This document shows, in pieces, positions 2,602 through 62,916 of a stretch of 64,000 nucleotides of DNA. The notes under the pieces are model-generated. The model saw nothing but the letters and a program-made list of their open reading frames with translations. It was not told where the DNA came from and ran no database searches. Position 1 is the stretch's first letter, and the number at the start of each line of letters is the position of its first letter. The stretch lies in assembly GCA_039915165.1 (NCBI GenBank), contig JBDSNU010000007.1:113812-177811 (forward strand). Direction: 5' to 3'. Source of the DNA: Minisyncoccota bacterium (GTDB lineage Bacteria; Patescibacteriota; Minisyncoccia; Phycocordibacterales; UBA9973). The position numbers and the translations under genes are program-made.

Positions 2602-3684
2602 TTACTGTTTAAATCTTATTTGGAAATTTAAATTCATGAAATTTTCACCATTACTTTCATAAATTTTACCGAATTCATGTCTGCCTGAACTGGGAGTATC
2701 AAAGTATGTATTCTTGTAGAGATAATCTTTAAACTCTTCTCGATTATACACATTATAACAAACCACATCACCATCATTTTTAACAATAATATAACCACCA
2801 TAAGCTTGCATATTTCCTTCCCATATTTTACTTGGCACCATACCCAGAGCAACCGCAACTAAAAACTCTTTCATTTTATGAACAAAAAAGGTTTTAGTTA
2901 TATTTAGTTTGTTATTTAAAGTTTCTTCTTTTTCAATAACATCAACCAGATCTTCAACTGATTTTCCTTTTCCTTGATAATAAGCAAGCAGAACCTCACT
3001 TAACATTTGTGGAAAAATGGAATCTGTCATTTTAAGATTTGATTCAAATTTCTTACTAGATGTTTCAATAAAATTTAATTTTACGCCATTATTAATTATC
3101 GTATTTATTCTATCTTTTATCTTAGATTTTGTTTTAATTGCATTTATTTCTTCAATATTAGGTATTCCTCCTTTTATTAAATAAATAAAATTAGTATGGC
3201 CTGAGGCATTTAATAATGTCGAACCACCTCCAAGCATAGATTTAACGCTAAATCCTAACTTTGTATCTTCAGGGGATATTCTATCTTTTACTGTCATAAT
3301 TAGATCTTCTTTTTTATAACTTGAAGCCTTAACTCTTGTACAATACATTTCGTTCATTAATTCTTCGGCAGTATTCGAAACAAAAGAAGATGAGGATGCA
3401 TTTTTTATCTCGTCAAAAATTTTAAGTGCGCATATCTTCAACTTTTCAGCTTTTATAACTGACAATTGTTCTCCATTTTTGATAATAGAAACTGAGTTTG
3501 AATCATTTGCTATTTCATATATGTATTTTTCTCCAGGGAATTCTTCTCTTATAATATTTAAAACTTCTAAGTATTTTTCTGGAATTCTATTTCGAGCAGA
3601 ATCAGCTGCAAATAATTTACCTTCTGAAAGAATTTTTACTAGTGCATAAAATTCACTCCATTCTCCCTTATTTGCTTTTATCAT
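2602..3684 (-). CDS. Type II restriction endonuclease, probably HpaII family.
   Basis: 360-aa ORF immediately downstream of the m5C MTase, overlapping it by 17 nt. The N-terminal KGEWSEFYALVKILSEGKL is recalled as the HpaII-family signature. Codon usage is AT-rich. Confidence 0.5.
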   Translation of the reverse strand: MIKANKGEWSEFYALVKILSEGKLFAADSARNRIPEKYLEVLNIIREEFPGEKYIYEIANDSNSVSIIKNGEQLSVIKAEKLKICALKIFDEIKNASSSSFVSNTAEELMNEMYCTRVKASSYKKEDLIMTVKDRISPEDTKLGFSVKSMLGGGSTLLNASGHTNFIYLIKGGIPNIEEINAIKTKSKIKDRINTIINNGVKLNFIETSSKKFESNLKMTDSIFPQMLSEVLLAYYQGKGKSVEDLVDVIEKEETLNNKLNITKTFFVHKMKEFLVAVALGMVPSKIWEGNMQAYGGYIIVKNDGDVVCYNVYNREEFKDYLYKNTYFDTPSSGRHEFGKIYESNGENFMNLNFQIRFKQ

Positions 3685-4552
3685 ATTCTTTCATTGACTT
3701 AATTATTTGTTTTGCAACAGCTTGAATTGCTGGAACTGCAACAGAATTTCCGAGCTGTTTCATCGCCTGAGCTTCTGAAACTGGAAATTGGTAGGTTTCA
3801 GGAAAACCCATCATTCTTTTACCTTCCTCAACTGTAATTCTTTTTGCCTTTCCATCTACTAAATAAGTATCCCAGTTTCTACGATCATGTAACCCAGATC
3901 CTCTTCCTCCAACACGTAATGTGTAACCAATATCTTTTTCACAATATGCGCCAAAAATATTAGACATGGTCATTGTTCTTTCTATTGGTTTTGGAAACTC
4001 AAATTTTATTTCTTTATTTTTAAAACCAATCATAAAAAGTCGCGCCCTATGTTGAGGAAGATTAAAGTCAGAAGCTCTAACTATTTTATAATAAAAAGAA
4101 TATCCCAGCTCTTCTTCAATAACTCTTTTTACTTCAGCGAAAGTATTACCGTTATCATGCTTTAAGAAGTGACTTACATTTTCAAGAAAAAATGCTTCTG
4201 GTCTTTTTTCTTTTAAGATTTTTACGATATCATAAAACAAAGTTCCTCGAACATCATCAAATCCTTTTTTCTTTCCCGCATGACTAAATGGCTGGCAAGG
4301 AAACCCTCCAGTGAGGATATTAAAATCGGGTATATTTTTAGGATCAACTTCTTTTATATCTCCAACAAAATTATTACCTTCAAAAATCCACGGTTCTTTC
4401 TTTTTGAAGTTTAGCTGATATGTTTCTCTTGCCTTTTGGTCCAGCTCAGATACAAAGACACATTCAGCTCCAGCATTTGAAAATGCAATATTAAAACCTC
4501 CAATACCCGCAAATAGATCTATAAATTTTATTTTAGAGTTATCTTGTTTCAT
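3668..4552 (-). CDS. DNA (cytosine-5)-methyltransferase.
   Basis: Motif I FAGIGGF, motif IV GGFPCQPFS and motif VI ENV (FFLENVSHF) are present. The C-terminal LGNSVAVP is also present. Confidence 0.85.
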   Translation of the reverse strand: MKQDNSKIKFIDLFAGIGGFNIAFSNAGAECVFVSELDQKARETYQLNFKKKEPWIFEGNNFVGDIKEVDPKNIPDFNILTGGFPCQPFSHAGKKKGFDDVRGTLFYDIVKILKEKRPEAFFLENVSHFLKHDNGNTFAEVKRVIEEELGYSFYYKIVRASDFNLPQHRARLFMIGFKNKEIKFEFPKPIERTMTMSNIFGAYCEKDIGYTLRVGGRGSGLHDRRNWDTYLVDGKAKRITVEEGKRMMGFPETYQFPVSEAQAMKQLGNSVAVPAIQAVAKQIIKSMKEYDKSK

Positions 4553-4707
4553 TAAAGGTAAATAGTATTAAAATATCTCTATAAGTCGATATTCTATTAT
4601 CAGCTGATTATCTCATAAATTCAAGATTTTCTCAATTCATTCGGTGACACTATTAATGAGTATAGTTAGCCAATATATCCTTAAAAGTTTATACTGGATA
4701 TATTATT

Positions 4708-5250
4708 ATGGATGAAAAATATATAATTTTTGAAGGTTTAATTGATCAACAGGCTTCCACCAAACTTGTTGATGCAATTAAGAGCCTGACTAACTCTGGG
4801 GCTACAAAGATAACGATTCTTTTTTCTTCTCTAGGGGGAAGTATTTACGAAGGATTTTTAATCGCTACACTGATTCAAAACTCCCGTATACCAATTAAAA
4901 TTCATGCAACAAACCATATTGACTCAATTGCAAATGTCATCTTTCTTTCAGCAAAAGAAAAAACTGCGGAGTCTCATGCAAAGTTTTATCTTCACGGGGC
5001 AGCTATCCAAGGAAATTTTGATGAGAAAGCACTATTAGAAAAACTATCAGAAATCAGAGCACAAAATACTAGAATTGCTAACTTCGTTTCGGAAAATTCA
5101 TCAATTATATTTAAAAAAGTTCAGGAGATGATGAAAGCTGGAACTACACTATCGACACAAGAAGCCCATAAAAAACAAATGGTTGATAGAATTGAACATT
5201 TAGAAATTCCTGCTTTTGCAGAAAGAATTGAAATAATTTACGTTAACTAA
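4708..5250 (+). CDS. ClpP-like (S14 family) serine peptidase-like protein, standalone.
   Basis: It aligns to ClpP around INSPGG (FSSLGGSIYEG). A candidate triad is Ser in NHIDSIANV, His in KFYLHGA and Asp in QMVD. Confidence 0.55.
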   Translation: MDEKYIIFEGLIDQQASTKLVDAIKSLTNSGATKITILFSSLGGSIYEGFLIATLIQNSRIPIKIHATNHIDSIANVIFLSAKEKTAESHAKFYLHGAAIQGNFDEKALLEKLSEIRAQNTRIANFVSENSSIIFKKVQEMMKAGTTLSTQEAHKKQMVDRIEHLEIPAFAERIEIIYVN

Positions 5251-6862: not shown

Positions 6863-8548
6863 TTATTTATTATTCTTTGCAGCAATCACTGCTCTCGCGA
6901 GACGAAGTGTGTCGAAGGTATATTTGCCATCTAAGTGATTGTAAACAGGAGAAAGTAATGTCGTATCGCAGGCTGAAAAAGCGACAGTTATAGTTGGTAA
7001 TGCTTTTTGTAATTTTGCATCAACAAAATGAGCGATATTTTCGTAATTGAGTTTTTTAAGAATAATCAACTTTTCAATATGATCAAGAATTGTCGTCGCT
7101 ACCATTTTGCGCGCTTTGGCGATTTCAGATAATGACTTCCCTTCTAAGACTAAATCTTTTGTTAGGTCTAATGTGTCCTTCTTTTCTATTTTTTCAGACT
7201 TACCTTTTTTGGCCTCTAACGTACCTCCTGCAGCCAAAATGAAATTCTTGTGCATTGTTTCAATATCTTCTGGTTCAATATTGGCAAAAATACCCTGTGC
7301 TGAATCCGATTGCTCATGAAAGATTTGATCTTCTTGGAGAATTCGAGGGTGCACTTGAAATGTTTGCGCATTCCAACCTGCAAGATATAAACCGCTCAAT
7401 GTACGGACACGAGAAAGCGCCACATACCCTTGGCCGAATTCAAATACCTGACGCAGGTCCATCATGGCATTGTCGAGTGATAACCCTTGGCTTTTGTGAA
7501 TGGTAATTGCCCATGCTAAGCGTAACGGTATTTGCCCAATAGTTGCTTTGACCTTGCCATCTTCTTCAATCGTCCAATCCATAGGCTCAATAGTAATTTC
7601 TTCACGATTTTTAGTTTGGATGATGGGATATTTAGTGCCAGTTTCAAAACGCATTACAGTACCAGTGGTACCGTTTACATACCCTTTTTGCATATTATTT
7701 TTTGTACACATAACTGCAACTCCGATTTTCAAATCTAACCGTTCAGGAGAAAGACAGCCTTTTTTCAAACTAGCTACAAGTGACTCCGAGCCTTTACTAA
7801 ACATTGTGTATGTATTTGTTGGACCATCGATCGCATTTAGCGCAGCGGTATTGATAGCATCAACATCAGCATTGTGTGCATACAATCGAGTCATGTTTTC
7901 TGTGTCATCAAAAGAATCACTATCACTAATGAGTCTTTGTTCTAAATGAATCATGTGGTCATCCATGCGTTCATTGCGACGGATGGCTGAGAGCAAATGT
8001 AAAAATGTTTCATCACTTTGACGGTGTTGTTCTGTAAGATAACACACTAGTGGCTTCATTTCTTTCCATACACGCGCTTCAAATGCAAATGGTACAACAT
8101 CACCATATCGTGAAATCGGTGGCAGTTGAAAAAAGTCGCCAACCAAAACAACTTGTATACCACCAAATGGTTCTGGAGATTGCTTGATTGTTTTACATAC
8201 TGCATCCACTAGATCTAATGTAAATCCATCAATCATAGACACTTCGTCAATAATCAACACTTTTGTTTTATTGATACGTCGTACTAGATATTCTGTAGTC
8301 GATAATTTATCTAAATCGTATGGTGACAATGTTTTGCGAATACCAATACCACTCCATGAGTGTATGGTTTGCCCTTGAATATGAGTTGCTGCAATACCAG
8401 TTGAAGCAGTAATTGCCGGTTCAATGCCATGCTCTTTTAAATAAGAAACAAAGGCATTAATTGTGAAGGTTTTACCTGCACCTGGCTCCCCTGTCAAAAA
8501 GACGCTTGCCCCAGTCTTTAATATCGTTAATGCTTGATTTTGGGTCAT
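6863..8548 (-). CDS. RecD/Pif1-like ATP-dependent DNA helicase with a C-terminal helix-rich domain.
   Basis: Walker A GEPGAGKT and Walker B LIIDEVSMI are present, and the AAA_30/UvrD_C_2-like arrangement is seen. Confidence 0.7.
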   Translation of the reverse strand: MTQNQALTILKTGASVFLTGEPGAGKTFTINAFVSYLKEHGIEPAITASTGIAATHIQGQTIHSWSGIGIRKTLSPYDLDKLSTTEYLVRRINKTKVLIIDEVSMIDGFTLDLVDAVCKTIKQSPEPFGGIQVVLVGDFFQLPPISRYGDVVPFAFEARVWKEMKPLVCYLTEQHRQSDETFLHLLSAIRRNERMDDHMIHLEQRLISDSDSFDDTENMTRLYAHNADVDAINTAALNAIDGPTNTYTMFSKGSESLVASLKKGCLSPERLDLKIGVAVMCTKNNMQKGYVNGTTGTVMRFETGTKYPIIQTKNREEITIEPMDWTIEEDGKVKATIGQIPLRLAWAITIHKSQGLSLDNAMMDLRQVFEFGQGYVALSRVRTLSGLYLAGWNAQTFQVHPRILQEDQIFHEQSDSAQGIFANIEPEDIETMHKNFILAAGGTLEAKKGKSEKIEKKDTLDLTKDLVLEGKSLSEIAKARKMVATTILDHIEKLIILKKLNYENIAHFVDAKLQKALPTITVAFSACDTTLLSPVYNHLDGKYTFDTLRLARAVIAAKNNK

Positions 8549-8566
8549 TAGGTCTTGATTGTAACA

Positions 8567-11500
8567 TTAGCTGCGTTTTTTGCTGAATACTGCCATTATA
8601 ACTAGTGCGCCAATAGCTAATAGTCCGAGAACTATTACCTTACCGGGACCAAGTGCTGTAACACCAGCAGCGCTGGCACTGAGCCCTTTCAAGGTTACTT
8701 CCGGATCTGACATTATGGTTCCTTCATCTGGAGCAGGAGCAGTAAGTATTGTGGTTGATGTAGTTTTTTTCTTGAGCGGAGTTTTTATGTCTTCCGCATC
8801 AGGCAAAATATCATCACTGGACTCATTATTTACATTTTCTTCTGATCCATCTGTATCAGTAGGAGTAACTGTACTACTTTGCATCGATACTGAAACATTA
8901 TTTCCCGACGAAGTTGCAATGGGAGCAGTTGTTGTGGTTGGAATAATCGTTGAAGTACTACCACCACTCTCAACTTTTAATTGTTTTATTTCTTCCGTAT
9001 TTCCGGCCCTATCGATTGATACAAAATAAACTGTACTACCTACACTTGTTGCAAAAGGCTTATCATATATTTGCCATACAATATTGTCAGTAGAATATTT
9101 TGTATTAAGGATGCCCGCATTATCATCTGTAGCTTTCAATGTAACTAAGCCATCAGCATATGTCGCTGTTGTAATGGGTACGACACTATCTTTTGCTTGC
9201 TTCTCTTCTAGAGATGATGATGCTTCAACAGTACGATCAATGGTGCCGTCATTATTATCATCAATAGTAATACTTGGTGAGCTATTTTCTTTACTTAAGG
9301 TAATCGTACCAAGTGTTTTGTCTGATAATAATGGCACTGCATGATAGTATGTTTGATGCGTTACAATATCAGATTCATCACTGTGCGAAATATACATGTC
9401 ATACAATCCAGCGGATTGTGCCTGCTGGGTTATTTTATATTTTGGACCAGTAGGTAAAAATACAAATTTTTCATCATCAATAACATCATACTGCACATTA
9501 GGAATTCCATACTCTATTCCTCCATCAATAGTTGGTCCAGTATGTCTACCTAATTCATCGTACACATTAAGCATAACTGGACTGTGCACATCAATAGTAT
9601 CCCCAGCCAAATTACATTGAGTCGACATAGTTGATATATCATTATTGGTAGTAGGCGCCTTGCCATCAAGTATTTGTACTATTGTGTCTTGAATTACAGG
9701 CAGTGATGCCACTGTGCCGTGCGAACCTGCGTGGACATAATAATTGTGAGCACCATTTTCAGCGACCGCGCTACTAACAGGAACTACGCCATCACCTGAA
9801 CCGTATAATAATCTATGCTCAGGGATTAACTTAAATCCAGTTAATGTTAAAGATTGTTCTTTTGTTAACGTAAAACCAGTAATTGTTTTTGTATTACCAC
9901 ATCCAGCAAAATCATACTTATCAAATGTCGAAGTCATTGTATCAATTTTGTCATGAAGTTGGTGGGCAAATGAAAACATGTTGTCATTTCTCCCATCCGC
10001 GATCATATACTTTTCGATATTGTCCTGACTCATATCATGTATTACTTGCGTTCTATCTTGAATGTAATGACTAACACCATCGATATATTTTTTGCTCGGT
10101 AAAAGTTCATACACTGAGGGCATATTTTGTGTAATAGTTTTCACTCGCTGCTCATTTAGTACGGGGACTTGTAATAACGAACCGAGAGAAAATCTAAAGC
10201 CCATATCATCACCATACATCAATGTTTTGAATGTTTTCGGAGCGCCGAGATGTGGCACTGCGATATAAAATAGATGATCAAGCGGTGCGGTTGGGTTTTC
10301 AGAAATATACTCTTTCACTAATAATCCGCCCATACTATGCGCAATGATGGTTACCTTTTTCTTCCCGCTCTTCAGTAATGCTTTTGCGATCATGTCTTTC
10401 AACAAGGATTGATTAACTGTATTACTTAGTCGCCAGTCATAGGGAAAGACAAATAAGTTAGCACCTTCGATATATCCTTTTGTATGTAAGGCATTTATCA
10501 TACTATTAAATATATCTACCGATGATGCTGAGCGAACAATGTCGCCTACTACCATTGGGCGCACTGTACTTGGAATACCGGTTTGTAATAACTCTAGATC
10601 ATTTAAATAACTATCTGTCGGACTTAGTGCAAGCTTAGCAATATTGGGCCATAACTCACTCTTATCTCCATAGTCTTTTGTTAAGATCGAACCGGTTATT
10701 CCTGGAACTATAATTATAGGATTTTGATCAGCTGTCGGAGGAGTAACAACGGGAGCCTCTGTTGTTGTCGGCTCATCTTTCATCCCTAACCATGGTTTAT
10801 AGATAACCTCAGTAGTGTTTTTTGTAATAATTGAATCACCTTTTCCCCCACTATTACTTTTAATGGTTGGCCCTGAATCACTGCCCCAGCCGTTATTTTT
10901 TATAACTGCTTTTACCATATCGATAACTGATACCCCTATAGTATTTCCATGAAAATAATTGTTGGTAATATTTTTAATTACAGGATTATTTAGTACGAGT
11001 GCAATTTTACTCGTAGTGAAATCAGAATTCGTAATAGTCAGATCACCTTGCTGCTCTGCAATAATAGCTGTTCCCGAAATATCTTTAAAATTACTGTGAG
11101 TAACACTTACCCCGGAAGCGGTTGCCTTAATAGCACTGCATAGATTGTGGAAATTGGTATATTTAATTTTACTATCAGCATTTGCTGCAAGAATGATAGA
11201 TGACATGTTGAGTGGACAAGTGCCATCTCCATAAACATTTACTGGTGATGCCTCCGTACCATTCACCACCAATGTGCCTCCTTGAGCTACATTAATACTA
11301 AACCCATCTTGAATAAAAACAGTAATACCATAATCTATAGTCAGCGTACCGCCATTCAATACCGTAATACCAAACACATAATATTCTCCATCGCGGGAAT
11401 TAAAATGGTAATTTTGACCTTGTAAAATATCACCACCATAATTCCACCCTTTAAACCCTTTCCCTAAAAACGTTGTGCCTGAATGTGTAAATGTGCCGTA

Positions 11501-12214: not shown

Positions 12215-13069
12215 CTACTGTGGGAAATATCTCAATATCCAAGAACTTCCTGGTATCAATGGGAAGATATCATGTCCTGTTCGGCGCAAAAGATATGGTG
12301 GGATTTGGCTGAATGGGATGGTTTGTATTGTAGAAGCTGCCGGTACTGCCGTTGCAACAGCAGACGTACGGAAGACACTGAAGCTTGTGCCGTCTGCATT
12401 GATGGCAGAAGGTACTGCTAATGCAACGGTGGTATTTCCTGTATCAAGTAAATTAATCATTTGAGGATTCATTTGTGATATTGCTAGACGTTGACCATTT
12501 TGTACCGCAGTCGCTCCAGTAAACGGTACTGGTGTGAACCCTGACAAAGGAGCAAGTACTCCATTTACCTGTGCTCTCTCTTGAATCCATTCAGCGGAAG
12601 AATGTAAAGAATGATATTGAACAGTTTTTGCAAATTGTTGTTTGGTAGTGTTATTGGTAATGACAATATTCCAGATGTCGGCTGAAGTTTCAATGATAGC
12701 AACACTGATGGAGTCTTTGGGGTGAACAGCGAGATTCACTGGCGTTGAGTCTTCTGGTAGAAGTTCATACCACGCTTGATACGTAGCGCCATCACTGTTA
12801 GCAATTTCATAAACGCCGGCTTGAATCAAGTCTGCACTACCCCTACCACCAATACCCACCCATGTCGCATTTGAAGCCAAGGTAGTTGAGTATGAAAGTT
12901 CTGGCATGACAAATGTCCCACTCACCCCTGTATATGTTCCCTGCTCAACTGCATATCCACTCCAGTTAGTTGATGCATTTAAAGAAACGTCGGCATAGGC
13001 TTTTGGTATTACCAGAAAAGATAGTGAAAATATAACGGCTATCAATGCTGCTTTTATAGATTTATTCAT
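12215..13069 (-). CDS. Secreted peptidase G1 (eqolisin, glutamic peptidase) family protein.
   Basis: A signal peptide is present. The protein aligns to scytalidoglutamic peptidase: TNWSGYAV against SNWAGAV, WVGIGG...LIQAGV against WVGIDG...ILQTGV (catalytic Gln), YQAWYELLPE against YDAWYEWYPD, and SAEWIQE against NAEWIVE (catalytic Glu). Confidence 0.75.
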   Translation of the reverse strand: MNKSIKAALIAVIFSLSFLVIPKAYADVSLNASTNWSGYAVEQGTYTGVSGTFVMPELSYSTTLASNATWVGIGGRGSADLIQAGVYEIANSDGATYQAWYELLPEDSTPVNLAVHPKDSISVAIIETSADIWNIVITNNTTKQQFAKTVQYHSLHSSAEWIQERAQVNGVLAPLSGFTPVPFTGATAVQNGQRLAISQMNPQMINLLDTGNTTVALAVPSAINADGTSFSVFRTSAVATAVPAASTIQTIPFSQIPPYLLRRTGHDIFPLIPGSSWILRYFPQ

Positions 13070-13105
13070 ACTAATATATACGTTTCAAAGTTAATAATTG
13101 TTGCA

Positions 13106-14482
13106 TTAGGCAAGTACACTAGCGATGCGTGCAAGGGTCATCTCTTTTCCTAAAATACTAGCAACTTCAAATGGATCCGGTGATTTTTCTTTTCCTGTAA
13201 GCGCAACACGAAGTGGCCATAATACATTTCCCTTTCCTTCTTCATCGGCATATTCAATCACCGCAGCTTTTATACTGTCGTAATTCCATTCTGCTTCAGA
13301 TACTGGCGCCAATAAGTTACCAACGCGAGCAAGGTACTGTTTTGTTTTGATCAACCCATCAGTGTCTTCTTTCAATGTTTTCCATACCAACATTTTTTCA
13401 TCAACGAGAGGTTGTTTGAAGAAGTAATCAAACTCCCCTTCGACAGAATCAGGGCCTTCGGCATTTCCTAATAACATTTTTATATCCGAGAATTTTTCGA
13501 TGCGATCGCGAAGCAATTGTTCAATCTTTTTTAGCATTTCATGACTAGGGACAGTATCTTCGATCCATGATGGTAACCATGCATGTGCATGATCCCAAAA
13601 TGTTTTTTGATCAAACTGTTTAATATATTCACGATTAAACCAGTCTAACTTTTCAGGATTAAACATTGCGGGAGATTTTTGTACCTTACTGAGATCAAAT
13701 ATTTCAATCAACTCATCCTTGGTAAATAATTCTTGTTCAGTGCCGGGATTCCAGCCAACCATGGCAACCATGTTAAACAGTGCTTCGGGTAGATATCCTA
13801 AGTCTCGGTATTCTGTAAGTGCTAGTGCCCCTTTACGCTTTGAGAGTTTTTGTTTGTCTGATCCTAATACCAAAGGAAGGTGTGCGTATACGGGAGTCGG
13901 CGCACCAATAGCCTTTTGAATGAGTATTTGACGAGGTGTATTTGAAACATGATCCTCACCGCGAACTACATGAGTAACACCAGCATCAAAGTCATCAACG
14001 ACAACAGCAAGATGAAAAAGCGGTTCACGAATATTTTTTGCAATAACAAAATCGCCAAGGTCTTCAGTGTTCATAGTTATATTACCCTTTATTTCATCAA
14101 AGAATGTTACATTTCCATTTGGGTTTTTGAAACGTACAATTTCTTTAATTACACCCGAACCATCCTTTGCTTCTTCTTTTGAAATGTATGCAGATCCATC
14201 TTCAATCATTTTTTCGAGCACCGCTTGATGACGTTCAACATTTTCTGACTGACGAATAAATACATCATGCTCAAGACCCATCCATTCCAGACTTTCCATA
14301 ATATTTTCTTCGTACTCTTTTTTTGAACGCTCCTTGTCCGTATCTTCGATGCGTAATACAAATGTACCCTTATGTTTACGTGCATAAAGGTATGAGAATA
14401 TTGCTGTTCGGTATGCACCTGAGTGTAATTTCCCTGTCGGACTTGGTGCAAATCTTGTTACTACCTTTTTAGTATTTTCCAT
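13106..14482 (-). CDS. gltX: Glutamyl-tRNA synthetase.
   Basis: RFAPSPTGKLHSGA (HIGH-type) and KLSKRKGA (KMSKS) are present, at a length of 458 aa. Confidence 0.9.
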   Translation of the reverse strand: MENTKKVVTRFAPSPTGKLHSGAYRTAIFSYLYARKHKGTFVLRIEDTDKERSKKEYEENIMESLEWMGLEHDVFIRQSENVERHQAVLEKMIEDGSAYISKEEAKDGSGVIKEIVRFKNPNGNVTFFDEIKGNITMNTEDLGDFVIAKNIREPLFHLAVVVDDFDAGVTHVVRGEDHVSNTPRQILIQKAIGAPTPVYAHLPLVLGSDKQKLSKRKGALALTEYRDLGYLPEALFNMVAMVGWNPGTEQELFTKDELIEIFDLSKVQKSPAMFNPEKLDWFNREYIKQFDQKTFWDHAHAWLPSWIEDTVPSHEMLKKIEQLLRDRIEKFSDIKMLLGNAEGPDSVEGEFDYFFKQPLVDEKMLVWKTLKEDTDGLIKTKQYLARVGNLLAPVSEAEWNYDSIKAAVIEYADEEGKGNVLWPLRVALTGKEKSPDPFEVASILGKEMTLARIASVLA

Positions 14483-41563: not shown

Positions 41564-41635
41564 TTCCCCTGTAGCTCAGCGGTAGAGCGGTCGCCTGTTA
41601 AGCGATTGGCCGTAAGTTCGAATCTTACCGGGGGA
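41564..41635 (+). tRNA. tRNA-Asn (GTT).
   Basis: Acceptor stem TCCCCTG/CGGGGGA. D arm GCTC-AGCGGTA-GAGC. Anticodon arm GTCGC-CTGTTAA-GCGAT. T arm GTAAG-TTCGAAT-CTTAC. Confidence 0.75.
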
Positions 41636-41698
41636 GCTAAGTGTTTATCGTGAAAGTGACCTATCCGCGTCCGGATAAGCCATTTTCTAGCGAGTTAA

Positions 41699-41759
41699 GT
41701 AACACACCAAAAAAGCCACAATGACTTAACCCACAATTGTGGCTTTTTTGGTGTGTTAC
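41699..41759. terminator. 24-bp perfect-stem hairpin between tRNA-Asn and the ABC/IS chimeric gene.
   Basis: gtaacacaccaaaaaagccacaat-(13 nt)-attgtggcttttttggtgtgttac. Confidence 0.7.
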
Positions 41760-41762
41760 TTT

Positions 41763-42602
41763 TTAATCAGGCAAGAATCCACCTGACTGCATTTTCCATA
41801 AATGAGCATACTTTCCATTCTGTTGAAGCAATTCTTCATGCGTACCATCCTCAACAATTTTTCCACCTTCCACAAATACAATACGGTCCATTGATTGAAG
41901 TGTCGAGAGTCGGTGAGCAATAGCAATGACTGTCTTCCCTTTCATTAGAATGGTTAATGCTTCTTGTACCTTTCCCTCACTTTCGCTATCAAGGGCACTC
42001 GTTGCTTCATCGAGAATAAATAGCGGGCTGTTCTTAAGTATGGCTCGAGCAATTGCAATACGCTGTCGTTGTCCACCCGAAAGCTTCACGCCCCGTTCAC
42101 CGACAACAGTGTTGTAGCCTTTTGGCAATGTTGAAATAAAGTCATCGGCATAGGCCATCTTTCCTGCTTGTTCGACTACTTCTCTTGAAGCCTCGGATGA
42201 GCCGTAGCGAATGTTTTCAGCAATCGTCGTATGGAAGAGCGATGTATCCTGAGAAATAAAAGAAATATGAGAACGGAGAGAATCTTGGGTCATTGTTGTT
42301 ATATCCACATCATTAATTTTTATTGTTCCACTTTGTGGGTCAAAGAACCTCAATAAAAGATTTATCGCCGTAGTCTTTCCCGCGCCGCTCAAGCTTGGCT
42401 TGAAGCCGCATAGCAGATGAACGTGGTCACCGTCGGTGCCGATGGCTTCGAACTCGATGTCGTAGCGTTCCTGGATGGAGCGGGAAATCTCCAGAATCGC
42501 TCTGTCTATCCGTGGCGTCAGCAGCGCCTTGCGGTACTTTAACGGAAAGACTATGTGATAGTGGGTGTCGTACGTGCTGTGGTTTGCGCTCTTGTTCGCC
42601 AT
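41763..42602 (-). pseudogene. Chimeric ORF. An IS200/IS605 TnpA N-terminal fragment (about 64 aa) is fused in frame to the C-terminal nucleotide-binding domain of an ABC exporter whose TMD is missing.
   Basis: The N-terminus HYHIVFPLKYRKALL...GDHVHLL matches the TnpA HuH motif. Walker A is LSGAGKTT, the signature is LSGGQRQRIAIARA, Walker B is ILDEATSALD and the H-loop is IAHRLST. GC content changes sharply at about 42405. Confidence 0.7.
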
Positions 42603-42700
42603 GGTTCGAGTCTATATGAAAACCTTAGGTTTTCATACTTTCCGAAAAGGAAACCCCGCAGCAAGCTGCGGGGAATTTGGGGGTTTAAAGACTAATATAA
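42410..42700 (-). mobile_element. IS200/IS605-family remnant: left-end hairpin plus the 5' part of tnpA.
   Basis: The subterminal hairpin ccccgcagc-aa-gctgcgggg lies upstream of the tnpA start. The segment is high-GC relative to its flanks. Confidence 0.55.
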
Positions 42701-42815
42701 CATCTAAATCTTTTACTTCCTGATATCTATTTTTTACCTCATCAAATAGTTCTTTGTATCTTTCAAAACCAACATTCATAGATTAATTATTATATAAATT
42801 GTACGTCTTAATGTA

Positions 42816-43103
42816 TTAGGACAGGTGAACCAATCGCTTATCCGTGATGGTTTTATGAAGCTTGTCGCGCTCGATTGTTCGCGCTATTTCAGGTATTCCT
42901 AGAGCTGAGGATGGAATATCACAAATCATATTACCGTGAAGATCAATGATCGCTCCTTTTTGAACAAGCGTGGTCTCGTTCCAAAAAGAATCGCCAAGAT
43001 TAAATTTTTGCATGATTCGCAGACCGTTACCATTCTTGTCCTGAAACACTGAAGACGTTTCTGTGCCATGCAGCGTCCGTTCCACTGCGCCTCCAACAGG
43101 CAC
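42816..43103 (-). pseudogene. Orphan C-terminal fragment of a paralog of the 43367-43996 gene (low GC).
   Basis: It shares the SSVFQ[DG]K[ND]G segment and a 28-bp near-identical nucleotide patch with the upstream gene. Confidence 0.45.
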
Positions 43104-43366
43104 GCGCTGTATTTTATGCGGGAGCGTCGTACTCCACTACTGCATGACACCAGATATATTTTTTTAATATGTATCCTTCACGCACCACCCTGACGCAGAC
43201 CTCGACCTGCGCCAATCCCGATGTGATCGGATAGAAACCTTCGCCCGAAGCCGTGACCGCAGGCATGTCAAAAATCTCGGCTTTAGTATATCAAAATAAA
43301 ATTAAACGCAAAAAGAGCCCAAGGTACAAAGTATCCAAGGGCTCAATAGTTTTAGAGGCAAAATCC

Positions 43367-43996
43367 TCAAGGTTTTTCTGCGAGAAACATCCAGTCAACG
43401 TCAGCAAACCAGTGGCCATCAACAACCACCAGGCTAAGCCTGCGCCTGCCATCGTCACGACTGACGCACAGGAAGCAACGGCGACCATCCTTGCCCTGAA
43501 ACACTGAACTTTCAGCGTTTTCTGCGGCGACAAAGTCTTTGCCGGCAAGTTCTGCGGGAAGCTTGTTTTCGGGAACGGCAGCCATGGCACCGGTTAAGTA
43601 GTTTGGTGCACTTTTGCATAAGGTCAGGCCGAACTTGTTCACGTACGCTTCCTCGTCGCCACTGTCCACGTTTTCGGTGACAGGGACGAAGTAGATGCGC
43701 TTTGCGCCAGCTGCTTCCAGTAACGGAATGCGGTCGTGATCATCGCTGATCCAATCGTACACGCTGTCGTAGTTTCCTTTCTCGATCGCCAGAGCGATGT
43801 TATTAATCGGATCTACAACAACAGAATACAAATCCTGAATCTTCGCTTCGCGGTCGGCCAATAGCTTGCCGAGGTTTTTCAGATCGTCTTCGGTGAGGAA
43901 TTCGATCGCTTTGTCGGAACCTTTGGCGTCCGTGATTCCTTGCCTCACCAAGACTGCGTAGTCTGAGTCGGCAATGATAAGAATTGTTTCGGGCAT
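43367..43996 (-). CDS. Hypothetical protein in the high-GC island. The probable start is MPETILIIADSDYAV at 43996; the ORF track extends it to 44134.
   Basis: 210-aa ORF at about 52% GC. No confident family assignment. Confidence 0.4.
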   Translation of the reverse strand: MPETILIIADSDYAVLVRQGITDAKGSDKAIEFLTEDDLKNLGKLLADREAKIQDLYSVVVDPINNIALAIEKGNYDSVYDWISDDHDRIPLLEAAGAKRIYFVPVTENVDSGDEEAYVNKFGLTLCKSAPNYLTGAMAAVPENKLPAELAGKDFVAAENAESSVFQGKDGRRCFLCVSRDDGRRRLSLVVVDGHWFADVDWMFLAEKP

Positions 43997-44155
43997 TAGT
44001 ATGTTTTTACAGTGTTTTGAAAAGAAATACGTTTTTAGTATCATAGCATGAATTGAGTATAAAGTCAATGATTTAAAGGCTATGCCCAAAAAGCCTCGTT
44101 TTTTCGCCACGACTACACATTTTCCCCGATCCAAGCTAAGGTACCCAAACCTTCC

Positions 44156-44623
44156 TTAACAAAGCCCCATGCCTCCATTCTCCCTCACCCAGTCCACCCA
44201 CACGTCAAAGTCCCTGTTATTCTCCATGATCGCAAGCGACCTGATGACCGCCATCGCAAACGCATCGGCCAGGTCGTCATGTCCCTCGATGCCAAATCCG
44301 GTCAGTTGGCTGACGAGCTCCTCCGCGCCATGCCTCGGGAACTGGATAATTCCTGTCTGTATGTAGTGCGAGGTCATGGCAAGGCGCGAGCGCTTGTCGG
44401 TCGTGTTCTTCACGCCTTCCACCTGTACTCCTGATCCAGAGAGCTGGTCCGCATAGATTTCCTGAAAGCCGTTCGACTCGATCACCACCAACGGTTCCAT
44501 GTCATACGGCAGGTTCTTTGCGAGCATCCGTATCGTCCTCGTTGTTTCGGGATACGGCATTCGCTTGTTGATTGGATTTGGCAGGATGTACATTTTGATG
44601 TCCCTGTCCTTCTGATGCAGCAC
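44156..44623 (-). pseudogene. Phage terminase large subunit C-terminal nuclease domain fragment (ATPase domain missing).
   Basis: The C-terminal HDDLADAFAMAV motif and RNaseH-like nuclease domain pattern are present. Only 155 aa remain. Confidence 0.55.
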
Positions 44624-44680
44624 GCCCGTGACGACTGCCGAACAGTGCGGTCTTTGCCGATACTCAACAGCAAATCAGCG

Positions 44681-45085
44681 CTAGGATTCTTCATGATGTT
44701 CTTCGGACACAATGCCCGCCAATTTCAATGCCTGCTCGACCAATACCTTTTGTTCCGGAGACATCTCGTGAATGGTTTCCAATCTTCCATCAATCTGTAC
44801 CTTTGTTTTGTAGTCGCCATGGTGGTGCTTGAGCCAGTACATGATCGCAGCCAGATTACGATCCTTGACCGCGCCGATGAGCTGGGACTCTGCCACGTCA
44901 TTGATGAGCAAGCGTCCTTCGCTGACTGCCTGGTCGGCTGATGTGGCGAATGCCTCGTCCTCCGCTTTCCATCGGTAAAAAGTTGCTCGTGAGATATCGA
45001 GCTTTTCGCAGGCGATCTGAACAATCGGTGTTTTCCGCAGTTGCTCCAGAAGCAGAGCTTTGTTTTCTTCGGTGGTTTTATTCAT
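44681..45085 (-). CDS. Phage terminase small subunit-like HTH protein.
   Basis: IACEKLDISRATFYRWKAEDEAF is the HTH typical of terminase small subunits. The gene sits directly upstream of the terminase large fragment. Confidence 0.55.
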   Translation of the reverse strand: MNKTTEENKALLLEQLRKTPIVQIACEKLDISRATFYRWKAEDEAFATSADQAVSEGRLLINDVAESQLIGAVKDRNLAAIMYWLKHHHGDYKTKVQIDGRLETIHEMSPEQKVLVEQALKLAGIVSEEHHEES

Positions 45086-45638
45086 AGAGCAATGTGGGCT
45101 GTATCTTCGTCAGTTTCTCAAATCGATCCATGACGGTCTGGCAGTATTCAATATCAAGCTCGACTCCAAGACACACTCGGTGGGTTTGTTCGCACGCAAT
45201 GAGTGTTGAACCGCTCCCAAGAAAGCAGTCGTAGACAACTTCATTAATATTTGTGCTGTTGAGAATGAGATTCCGCAGAAGCGGTATCGGCTTCATGGTC
45301 GGGTGCAGACTGCTTTTCGTCGGGCGAGGATAGAAGAGATCGCACCAGACGAAGACATGCGTATCCATCTTTGAAATCTCCAAGCCGTTGCCGATTATGT
45401 TCTTCAGAAATGTTTTGTACTCATCGTCGGGCTTGCTGTCATCGACTGACCCGCCATAGTGCTGCCTGCGTCCGACGCCCTTGTTGTAGTCGAGAGAGAT
45501 GTTGTACGGCGGGTCGAAGTACAGCATGGAGACGTTCACGCAGGTGCTTTCTTTTTGTTCGAGGCGAACCCCGGCAATGCTGTTACCGGGGTTGGGAGCA
45601 AATAAAAAAGCTCCATCCTTTACCCAACCTCGTTGCAA
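45078..45638 (-). pseudogene. Phage-type N6-adenine/N4-cytosine DNA methyltransferase (beta-class order: DPPY before FxGxG), probably N-terminally truncated.
   Basis: Motif IV is LYFDPPY and motif I is CFLGSGSTLIA. High GC. Confidence 0.6.
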
Positions 45639-45639
45639 G

Positions 45640-45877
45640 AGAGCTGGAAAAATCAGGAATGGTTATAGAACGACTGGAGCCATGGAAAGGCAAAGTTACA
45701 TTCAAAGATGTGGGGGCCCTTGTATTTATGCTCAAGGCTGTGCCATGGACTGTAGGTGATTTCAGTGTCATTAAACACCGAGAGGTATTAGAAAAGCTAA
45801 AAAAAGATATTGATAAGAACGGAAAATTAACTTTTGCTGAGAGTAAGTATTTAATAATTGCAAAGAAAAAAGTCTAG
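45640..45877 (+). pseudogene. C-terminal remnant of a native class I SAM-dependent methyltransferase, cut by the high-GC insertion.
   Basis: The low-GC tail ...ERLEPWKGKVTFKDVGALVFMLKAVPWTVGDFSV resembles the C-termini of type-11 methyltransferases. The upstream part of the ORF is out of context and high-GC. Confidence 0.45.
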
Positions 45878-45895: not shown

Positions 45896-45923
45896 TTTCG
45901 AACATCGTCCAGGGTTCGGAGCA
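45896..45923. repeat. Copy 1 of a 27-28 nt imperfect-palindromic direct repeat.
   Basis: tttcgaacatcgtccagggttcggagca. Confidence 0.85.
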
Positions 45924-46240: not shown

Positions 46241-46268
46241 TTTCGAACATCGTCCAGCGTTCGGAGCA
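46241..46268. repeat. Copy 2 of the same repeat.
   Basis: tttcgaacatcgtccagcgttcggagca. Confidence 0.85.
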
Positions 46269-46593: not shown

Positions 46594-46620
46594 TTTCGAA
46601 CATCGTCCAGCGTTCGGAGT
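46594..46620. repeat. Copy 3 of the same repeat.
   Basis: tttcgaacatcgtccagcgttcggagt. Confidence 0.85.
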
Positions 46621-61355: not shown

Positions 61356-62618
61356 TTATTGCACTTCTCCCAAATAAGGTAACGGTAGACCGTAGACATA
61401 TTTATCAGTAGTGTGGCGAAGCATGCTTTTCTGTAAGCGGTCCTTATTGGATGGCATCGTAGAGAGTACACTCAGACTATTTTGTCCAAACTTTTTGCGT
61501 ATAGCATCAACAGTGTGCATTAACCTCCCTTCCTCGGTAGTGTTTTTTTGCTCACCAAAAAGATCTTCTTGAATATGGATGTCTTTGCGCAACCCCCAGA
61601 CAGTAATTCCAGTAGCTTTGTATCGAATACCTTTTCGTAATAACAATATAACTTGTTCTCGAACAATCGCTGTTATATCTAATACGTTGTTGGTATAACG
61701 TGGCAAAGGAATCGCTATACCCGAATATTTACGGTCAGTGGTTTTAACATAAATACTAAGACCGTTGGTAAATAATCCTTGCTTGCGCATACGAGTAAAT
61801 ACCACATCAGCATTGTGCAGTAATTCGGCGGCGATATATGAGGGGTCTATTGAGGCTGGCATAAATGACCGTGTTGCCTGCAGCGACTTGGACTGAGAAC
61901 GATCATTAGAAACATCAAAACGGTTATGGCCCTTCATTTCATGCCATAATTCTTGAACAGGTGCATTAAAGGTTTCCATAACGCGCTGCTCTGGCCACTG
62001 GGTAAATTCATATGCGGTAGCTACTCGTAATGTTTGGAAGCGTCGAGATAGTCGCCAACCAATACCCCAGACAGACTCTATGCTGGTTTTTTGCAGTACT
62101 TCTTTTTCATCATCAATAGTGACTACTGTGGCGCCATCGGGTTTTTGATATTTTGAAGCCAACTTTGCCAATACTTTTGTGCGAGCCATGCCGAAAGAAT
62201 ACGTTAATCCAATCTGTAATTGGATTTTTTTCTTCAATGCAATAACCCACCCATACACTTGATCTTTGGACCATGCTTCTGGCAAACGTACTAGTGCAAA
62301 ACATTCATCAATGCTGTATTTTTCTAACACTGCAACTTCTGCATCCAGCAATGTACAAAGTTTAAGTGCATAATGGTCATACAATTCGAAATGAGAAGTT
62401 AAGATCGCCACTTGGGGAAATTGTTCTTTAATTTTGAACATAGGCATGCCACGAGTAATACCTAGGCGCTTCGCTTCATATGTCATAGCCATTGCAATGC
62501 CACGCTCTTCACCAACTACTACAGGTTTGCCGTGCAAATGAGGAAAGCGCGCGATTTCACAATATGCAAAAAAGCCGTCGCCATCGATATGAAGTATCCA
62601 TTCTTTTTTCTTAAGCAT
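61356..62618 (-). CDS. umuC: Y-family DNA polymerase (UmuC / Pol V catalytic subunit-like).
   Basis: The N-terminus is ILHIDGDGFFAYCE. The DEC region is SIDECFALV. The gene overlaps upstream umuD by 8 nt. Confidence 0.8.
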   Translation of the reverse strand: MLKKKEWILHIDGDGFFAYCEIARFPHLHGKPVVVGEERGIAMAMTYEAKRLGITRGMPMFKIKEQFPQVAILTSHFELYDHYALKLCTLLDAEVAVLEKYSIDECFALVRLPEAWSKDQVYGWVIALKKKIQLQIGLTYSFGMARTKVLAKLASKYQKPDGATVVTIDDEKEVLQKTSIESVWGIGWRLSRRFQTLRVATAYEFTQWPEQRVMETFNAPVQELWHEMKGHNRFDVSNDRSQSKSLQATRSFMPASIDPSYIAAELLHNADVVFTRMRKQGLFTNGLSIYVKTTDRKYSGIAIPLPRYTNNVLDITAIVREQVILLLRKGIRYKATGITVWGLRKDIHIQEDLFGEQKNTTEEGRLMHTVDAIRKKFGQNSLSVLSTMPSNKDRLQKSMLRHTTDKYVYGLPLPYLGEVQ

Positions 62619-62916
62619 ACTTTCTCACCACTGCTTTCACTACAGCAGTAATACTATAAGAAGTTTTGGCTTGAATAGTATCAAAGTATTTCATTTTCCA
62701 GACACCATCGATTGCAGCAATAACAATGTCACCGCGCTTAGCTTCTACTGCTCTCTCAACAATAACAAAATCTCCTTCACAGATCCCTGCTTCTTGCATC
62801 GCATTGCCACTAACACGCAACATAAATGATGCTTCCCTGTTATCGATCAAATACGCATCCAGAGTGGTGCGGTCTAAAAGATTTTCTTCAGCTGGTGTGG
62901 GAAATGAGTTTTTCAC
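62611..62916 (-). CDS. umuD: UmuD-prime-like S24 peptidase-fold protein; the N-terminal segment containing the UmuD self-cleavage site is absent.
   Basis: The protein aligns to E. coli UmuD from FPSPA onward: SFPTPAEE...RVSGNAM (Ser) ...GDIVIAAIDGVWKMKYF (Lys). The region including the Cys-Gly cleavage site is absent. The start is a GTG. Confidence 0.7.
   Translation of the reverse strand: MKNSFPTPAEENLLDRTTLDAYLIDNREASFMLRVSGNAMQEAGICEGDFVIVERAVEAKRGDIVIAAIDGVWKMKYFDTIQAKTSYSITAVVKAVVRKYA

Follow-up and report, generated by a model that had tools for sequence, protein, structure and literature searches.

Positions 43023-45640 of the 64,000-nucleotide stretch analysed here (the window; contig JBDSNU010000007.1, positions 113,812 to 177,811) are very probably one dead copy, with deletions inside it, of a compact integrative element that may be satellite-like. 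The locus had been noticed in a reading of the DNA made without database searches (hereafter the sequence-only reading), where it was called a prophage remnant on the strength of three minus-strand open reading frames (ORFs), the coordinates of which we recovered exactly:

45078-45638, minus strand: DNA methyltransferase (MTase) ORF, 186 aa
44681-45085, minus strand: terminase small subunit (TerS) ORF, 134 aa
44156-44623, minus strand: terminase large subunit (TerL) nuclease ORF, 155 aa

That the locus is the degraded remnant of a mobile element stands, but the word prophage does not, because the relatives described below have no conserved portal, capsid or tail genes within 10 kb; a better name is the relic of an integrative element that bears terminase genes and lacks virion genes. 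The raised GC content reported for the locus was confirmed: 44156-45638 has 51.7%, and the window exclusive of 41640-45640 has 39.1%. A Logan contig from SRR26386601 is identical to the window, an independent assembly from SRR26386600 differs from it by two mismatches in 15,411 bases, and the locus proteins are present in two NCBI records of metagenome-assembled genomes (MAGs) of Candidatus Paceibacterota bacterium (tags ABIO57_0334x-0336x). Because two samples were assembled independently and the proteins occur in two MAG records, the locus is real sequence and an assembly artefact is ruled out. The host is a bacterium of the Candidate Phyla Radiation (CPR, or Patescibacteria).

The identities proposed for the three genes were borne out by profile matches. 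The 155-aa TerL fragment matched the PHROG terminase large subunit family phrog_38 (E=1.5e-13, profile positions 573-708 of 760) and NCBIfam TIGR01630 (50.0 bits, curated cut-off 41.65); its profile matches were confined to the nuclease part of the large terminase, the C-terminal RNase H-like nuclease domain thus being recognised by a curated profile. TerS, a small protein with an N-terminal helix-turn-helix, fits terminase-small profiles and matched the PHROG families phrog_309 (E=2.4e-9) and phrog_4044 (E=2e-8), with Pfam helix-turn-helix matches falling just under their cut-offs. The MTase ORF matched Pfam N6_N4_Mtase (PF01555) at 80 bits, against a cut-off of 26.7, in two separate stretches, and holds both DPPY (motif IV) and FLGSGS (motif I). 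The hidden Markov model scan proposed in the sequence-only reading was only partly successful within Pfam, where N6_N4_Mtase exceeded its cut-off but Terminase_6C did not (16.7 bits, cut-off 22.6) and the TerS families matched weakly; terminase profile hits were nevertheless obtained with phrog_38, TIGR01630 and the PHROG TerS families, so that the outcome named there as refuting the reading did not arise. In comparisons with phage genomes, also suggested there, TerS shared 37% identity with the ORF that immediately precedes terL in Riemerella phage vB_RanS_PJN03 (PJN03), and the TerL fragment had no tblastn match at E<1e-3 in 50,697 phage records. In about 30 IMG/VR loci, too, the ORF ahead of terL resembles TerS, at 33-66% identity. 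The MTase-terS-terL order had been described as phage-like, and the same order indeed occurs in PJN03 and in more than 100 related loci.

The breakage was mapped against an intact relative, L070 (L-numbers are labels of the fetched comparison loci), which lies in another Paceibacterota MAG and was retrieved by scanning GTDB species genomes with a TerL-nuclease alignment. L070 has intact genes for a ParB-MTase (MT1, 447 aa), a second MTase (MT2, 268 aa), TerS (134 aa) and TerL (490 aa), the last matching phrog_38 with E=1.9e-80 over residues 17-467. Three colinear blocks of about 80% nucleotide identity were found by blastn:

Block 1: L070 7204-7401, window 45537-45340
Block 2: L070 8397-9100, window 45338-44635
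Block 3: L070 10026-10500, window 44646-44172

Absent from the window are L070 7402-8396 (995 bp) and 9101-10025 (925 bp). The second of these deletions corresponds to terL codons 21-329 of 490 and bears out the claim that the gene lacks its ATPase domain: Walker A (L070 residue 68) and Walker B (171) are both gone from the window TerL. So is the first catalytic Asp (GVD, 317-319), a residue essential for TerL nucleases, while the E of VIESNG and the D of HDDLADA are retained. What is left of terL lies in two pieces:

44636-44694, minus strand: first 20 codons of terL, retained, with the start ATG at 44694; aligned to L070 9041-9100
44156-44646, minus strand: terL nuclease-domain fragment, parental codons 330-490 plus stop; L070 10026-10500, 80% identity

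Frame translations place these two pieces in different reading frames, and the 155-aa TerL ORF is merely an internal, GTG-initiated frame. The junction, at about 44636-44646, shows a 4-nt microhomology (GCAG), and the junction left in the MTase by the 995-bp deletion has the microhomology GCG.C. The break in terL is a 925-bp deletion and not a frameshift. The peptide ADLLLS in the second frame had been considered as the frameshifted start of the nuclease (GVDLAIS), but the L070 alignment shows it to be part of the native TerL N terminus (MKNPSxDxLxSIxKDRT).

It had been said that only degraded pieces remain. Degradation is plain, with three deletions mappable, two of them to the base, but terS is full length: it has 134 aa as in L070, is colinear with its counterpart and is about 89% identical to it (15 differences counted). 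It overlaps the start of terL (terS stop at 44681-44683, retained terL ATG at 44694), as it does in L070 (8650-9054 and 9041-10513) and in phage PJN03. The ratio of nonsynonymous to synonymous substitution rates (dN/dS) between the window and L070 is 0.026 for terS, the lowest of the pieces; the broken pieces are somewhat higher, at 0.06-0.12. A three-taxon comparison gave the window branch of terL about twice the dN of the L070 branch, with 14 window-specific amino acid changes and 7 specific to L070, hinting at relaxed constraint on the window terL.

Other copies of terL are broken in other ways. L004 has a single in-frame TAA in place of the Leu codon after GVD (846-848), L009 has an IS3 insertion plus a frameshift (7414-9740), and in the Andersenbacteria loci L006 and L086 a 246-aa stump stands beside a serine recombinase (802-1542). 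Decay of terL is thus recurrent in the family, by a new lesion in each case, and because every broken relative has its own lesion there is probably no selected nuclease-only form. A stand-alone family of nuclease-only TerL proteins was considered and rejected: the first homologues found, of 96-295 aa, were contig ends or independently broken genes, and about 500 aa is the norm.

The 995-bp deletion has a less obvious consequence in that it joins, in frame at about 45339, pieces of two different methyltransferase genes:

45340-45638, minus strand: 5' part of the chimeric MTase, from codons ~185-276 of the ParB-MTase gene MT1, with motif IV DPPY; L070 7204-7401, 80% identity
45078-45338, minus strand: 3' part of the chimeric MTase, from MT2 codons 180-268, with HPTMKP and motif I FLGSGST; L070 from 8397

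Protein homology to MT1 reaches back to about residue 8 of the MTase ORF. Using tblastn with about 30 other loci, residues 36-103 matched MT1 and residues 101-184 matched MT2; the MT1-derived part is 41-62% identical to the N-terminal part of MT1 in about 25 loci, and the MT2-derived part is 56-73% identical to MT2 C termini in many loci. About 95 core residues between motif IV and motifs X/I are absent relative to either parent, and the ParB N-terminal domain (MT1 codons 1 to ~184) is missing from the window. The window MTase ORF is, on this evidence, a chimera of two genes, which the sequence-only reading had overlooked. A compact MTase variant had been entertained after a MAFFT alignment with three phage MTases hinted that DPPY was not motif IV, but tblastn and L070 show the two-gene composition. 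The ParB domain was lost at the outer left junction, at about 45640, together with the 5' part of the neighbouring host gene, of which a fragment remains:

45641-45877, plus strand: 3' fragment of a host gene, last ~78 codons, class-I S-adenosylmethionine-methyltransferase-like; abuts the element end at ~45640

This fragment aligns to the C-terminal ~75 residues of proteins of about 250 aa that bear Methyltransf_11 at residues 55-143, and over its length (45641-45877) the GC content drops to the host level.

On the other side, and also overlooked in the sequence-only reading, the high-GC tract runs on past terL into a decayed diversity-generating retroelement:

43367-43996, minus strand: retroelement target gene, 209 aa, intact (NCBI ABIO57_03350); variable region 43378-43508
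43023-43053, minus strand: template-repeat stub, 31 nt; homology to an intact retroelement ends at 43023

Window 43023-44068 is 92% identical to L150 7929-8968, and the differences concentrate in the variable region. Homologues of the target gene are 64-89% identical and, in L150-L153, have as neighbours a 32-aa ORF, a template repeat and the genes for bAvd and a reverse transcriptase, together making up a diversity-generating retroelement. Beyond the 31-nt stub, Avd, the reverse transcriptase and the recombinase have been lost from the window copy; tblastn of the window with the L150 and L151 proteins gave best E values of 0.06 for the reverse transcriptase and 0.51 for Avd, both far from the locus. 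In L143 and L050 a complete retroelement occupies the interval from TerL to the recombinase; in L032 one follows TerL immediately, and the fetched locus is without a recombinase. All three comprise a target gene, a reverse transcriptase and a variable region/template repeat pair with segments of 81-86% identity; for L143 and L050, Pfam also confirmed bAvd. Because complete retroelements occupy the cargo position in these three loci, the window retroelement was plausibly cargo of the same element.

The nuclease fragment and the chimeric MTase are pseudogene products, and no genes of the remnant other than terS and the retroelement target gene are intact. With the reverse transcriptase and Avd gone and the template repeat cut down to its stub, the retroelement can no longer be expected to diversify its target, and the remnant as a whole presumably neither packages DNA, methylates DNA nor moves. 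It might be argued instead that the host has domesticated a nuclease-only TerL, TerS and a short MTase as a unit, for example in nuclease-based defence or interference with packaging, given that all three ORFs stay open, that terS is intact with the lowest dN/dS (0.026), and that TerL stumps of about 246 aa recur beside serine recombinases in Andersenbacteria. We regard this as extremely improbable: the nuclease part is out of frame with the terL start and has no β1 catalytic Asp, the MTase has lost its ~95 residues between motifs IV and X/I, the breakpoints differ in every broken relative, and the same-breakpoint form was found only in the organism's own contigs and MAG records. PADLOC gave no match to TerS or TerL.

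The nature of the element before it decayed must be judged from its relatives. The TerL-nuclease alignment recovered 56 loci from IMG/VR and at least 361 from genomes, and the best 80 were fetched. Of these, 46 are titled as CPR lineages; the remainder come mostly from one MAG series, with the deposited labels Gammaproteobacteria, Bdellovibrionales and Pseudomonadales, which are taken here as they stand. ORFs were clustered over about 140 loci, and the four commonest families were:

TerL family, 140 loci
MTase family, 109 loci
TerS family, 103 loci
Large serine recombinase family, 80 loci

The next commonest family, a LexA-type repressor (27 loci), is encoded divergently upstream and may be the host lexA. 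The module genes all lie on one strand in the order ParB-MTase (~440 aa), sometimes a further MTase (~255 aa), TerS (~145 aa), TerL (~500 aa), none to a few variable genes, and the recombinase (~440 aa). The intact members are integrative modules with their own recombinase, TerS and TerL but without the full set of virion genes. Some loci are more elaborate: two different full-length TerL genes of about 520 aa each stand in tandem between TerS and the recombinase in L015 (4808-5224, 6384-6854), L020, L024, L031 and L106, L078 has two modules within about 8 kb, and L094, L107 and L126 have a second recombinase upstream of the module. Such tandem and adjacent copies suggest repeated integration at the same site.

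Whether virion genes accompany these modules bears directly on the possibility that the locus is an ordinary prophage remnant, i.e., a complete tailed temperate phage decayed to a methyltransferase, terS and a piece of terL. Each of the three genes is of a phage family, a tRNA gene is nearby, and in real phages (PJN03; L018, L021, L042-L045) the MTase-TerS-TerL series is followed by a portal gene. However, the ORF list, Pfam and PHROG revealed no portal, capsid or tail genes around the window locus, and no conserved portal, capsid or tail family occurs within 10 kb of the modules in the ~140 loci; that is, no family of structural genes recurs near the relatives. When 150 flank ORFs, picked at random from 39 loci, were scanned with PHROG, the 25 commonest families likewise included repressor, UmuD-like and unknown ones but none for portal, capsid or tail proteins. 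A portal-like gene family comes after TerL in just seven IMG/VR contigs, which are more distant (28-40% identity) and look like true phages. The closest relatives (36-80% identity, more than 100 loci) have cargo and a serine recombinase after TerL and no portal; L070 has a type III restriction-modification system directly 3' of terL; and the homology among the window, L004 and L005 ends at the terL stop codon. An ordinary prophage is, on balance, an unlikely source of the remnant.

The flanks of the modules are variable, with genes on both strands that have housekeeping or defence functions. Among these genes are GmrSD, DUF2779, superfamily 1 helicase and type I and type III restriction-modification systems; GmrSD and the type I/III systems were confirmed by Pfam in L019, L025 and L070. 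Two further observations were made by inspection of the sequence only. A pair of genes resembling a cyclic-oligonucleotide-based antiphage signalling system (CBASS-like; a nucleotidyltransferase of ~300 aa and a two-transmembrane protein of ~210 aa) lies beside a LexA-family gene upstream of the module in L118, L134, L141 and L143, and L120 has a TIR-like ORF of 136 aa (12837-13247).

Such neighbours, together with the tight linkage of MTases to TerS-TerL in 109 of the 140 loci, invite the thought that the parent module is itself a defence system akin to restriction-modification, in which the MTases mark self DNA and TerS/TerL cut unmarked DNA, carried on recombinase-bearing islands; the neighbourhood is indeed rich in GmrSD, type I/III restriction-modification and the CBASS-like and TIR-like ORFs just described. 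This we consider very unlikely. The MTase-TerS-TerL linkage is also found in true phages, TerL is a full phrog_38 terminase, and PADLOC recognises the MTases alone, with no model matching TerS or TerL. The signatures of mobility, moreover, fit a mobile element.

The clearest of these signatures comes from L110 and L124, which have 6.25 kb in common at 92% identity within unrelated flanks. The common block consists of MT1, MT2, TerS, TerL, the recombinase and a small membrane protein, and its right edge falls in each locus within the 3' part of a tRNA-Ser gene, the two genes being different (anticodons CGA and TGA). Among the 71 loci with a recombinase after TerL, 22 have a tRNA gene further downstream, and all 22 are convergent with the module (13 Ser, 6 Gln, 1 Tyr, 1 Glu and 1 Lys). 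The window, too, has a tRNA gene in this arrangement:

41565-41637, plus strand: tRNA-Asn(GTT), found by ARAGORN and Rfam; convergent, 2.5 kb beyond the end of terL

From its orientation and proximity, this tRNA gene is a candidate for the original integration site. No second copy of its 3' end was found in the window, no convincing attachment-site repeats of tRNA 3' ends were found at the left side of intact elements, and short IMG/VR contigs had no terminal direct repeats indicative of circular forms. No LexA remnant was found near the locus. The sole LexA/S24-family match in the window is a UmuD-like S24 peptidase (101 aa) followed by a Y-family DNA polymerase (420 aa) at 61356-62916 on the minus strand.

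We return to the reading of the locus as a dead integrative element and to what its parents may have done. As a tentative proposal, which we think somewhat less likely to be right than wrong, the parent family is an undescribed class of satellites or packaging-competent integrative islands, mainly of CPR/Patescibacteria, that have a complete terminase and no capsid and that either hijack the procapsids of helper phages or package adjacent defence islands in situ, thereby spreading retroelements and defence systems. In the reading of the parents that goes with our main account, the serine recombinase would insert the element, in some members alongside the 3' end of a tRNA gene. The element's own TerS and TerL would then recognise and cut its DNA and load it, satellite-like, into helper-phage capsids; packaging into helper capsids is inferred because the intact family has a complete terminase without virion genes. 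The methyltransferases might protect the transferred DNA from restriction, and the cargo of retroelements and defence genes might pay the host.

Several points weigh against these interpretations, whether of the remnant or of its parents. The relative-rate excess in the window terL is not significant (chi-square 2.3), and the dN/dS values of 0.03-0.12 are mostly an imprint of the period preceding the deletions. No remnant of a recombinase was found in the window, and tRNA-Asn is absent among the tRNA types seen in the family. Left ends could not be placed for intact elements, and the flank survey covers just the 25 commonest PHROG families. The retroelement may have inserted independently, as its closest relatives, in L150-L153 (92% identity), are flanked by relA and topA and have no terminase in the vicinity. 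For the parent family, the satellite mechanism is conjectural: the analysis turned up no helper phage, excised circle, packaging (pac) site or replication gene, and the genes directly upstream of MT1 had no profile matches.

Other features around the locus suggest further rearrangement. To the left of the retroelement stub there is an unassigned low-GC stretch, then a 5' fragment of an IS200-type transposase with a hairpin, and then the 3' half of an ATP-binding cassette (ABC) ATPase. The last two are fused in a 279-aa ORF at 41763-42602 on the minus strand, in which about 70 initial residues of an IS200-type (Y1) transposase run into the C-terminal ATPase half of an ABC transporter (Pfam Y1_Tnp residues 10-72, ABC_tran 72-202). 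Slightly upstream, at about 42640-42675, is a GC-rich hairpin of the kind seen at IS200/IS605 ends; the fusion ORF looks like another rearrangement scar, and an exact-sequence look-up of it gave no NCBI record. The 4 kb between tRNA-Asn and the broken host gene is a graveyard of mobile DNA.

Right after the broken end of the element, in a low-GC stretch, a 25-33-nt motif with an imperfect 7-bp inverted repeat, TTTCGAACATCGTCCAGCGTTCGGAGCA, occurs in three plus-strand copies (45897-45921, 46242-46266 and 46595-46619) about 350 nt apart with unrelated flanks. None would be expected by chance, and there were no further copies in the window or in 153 other loci. At the far left of the window, an ORF at 3695-4555 on the minus strand is 41% identical over 325 aa to an ORF of L041 (63-1052) that stands beside an intact MTase-TerS-TerL-recombinase module. 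It sits in a stretch of 30-31% GC at about 3000-5000, and this low GC suggests a second foreign island in the window.

The window locus is a fossil, ordinary and of no special importance alone. It does show, base by base, how such elements die, and how microhomology deletions can leave misleading ORFs such as the two-gene "methyltransferase". The family of intact relatives is another matter and merits dedicated study: its five-gene core, with a full terminase and without virion genes, occurs at no fewer than 361 places among genome representatives, mostly of CPR bacteria, and often beside diversity-generating retroelements and defence genes. To our knowledge, phage biology and horizontal gene transfer in CPR bacteria are almost unexplored. 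If the elements are satellites, they would be the first described for these bacteria and would explain many of the "viral" calls in IMG/VR that rest on terminase markers alone. We found no description of such an element in the literature, although our coverage was incomplete and this is no proof of novelty.

Among known systems, the retroelement is closest to clade 2 of the diversity-generating retroelements of CPR bacteria (Roux et al. 2021, PMC8144416), having a target gene whose variable region is C-terminal, and a stub of the template repeat. Its intact relatives have the target gene, the variable region/template repeat pair, the reverse transcriptase and, where checked (L151, L143 and L050), bAvd, whereas the window copy retains neither the reverse transcriptase nor Avd and has only a small part of the template repeat.

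Staphylococcal cassette chromosomes, mobilised by CcrA/B, resemble the terminase family in being small site-specific islands with a large serine recombinase at one end and variable cargo. The best NCBIfam match of the family recombinase is indeed CcrB, but its 138 bits are far below the cut-off of 900; it is not a Ccr orthologue, and the cassettes have no terminase genes.

The phage-inducible chromosomal islands (PICIs), their capsid-forming counterparts (cfPICIs) and the phage-inducible chromosomal minimalist islands (PICMIs) are likewise small integrative elements without a full virion set that carry their own gene for packaging specificity (TerS, and in cfPICIs also TerL), an integrase and variable accessory or defence cargo, many of them at tRNA genes or other conserved sites. 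The terminase family differs in having TerS plus a full TerL with no capsid or portal genes, in using a large serine recombinase and not the usual tyrosine integrase, and in carrying one or two DNA methyltransferases; no replication module was recognised in it, and its hosts are mostly CPR bacteria.

A further parallel is the DNA-modification and packaging module with which the late operon of tailed phages begins, Riemerella phage PJN03 being an example. Its late operon starts with ParB, ParB, PAPS reductase, TerS, TerL and portal, and it agrees with the terminase family in gene order and orientation, in the homology of TerS and in the overlap of terS with the start of terL. What follows terL sets the two apart: in the phage it is the portal gene and the structural operon, whereas in the terminase family cargo and the recombinase take their place.

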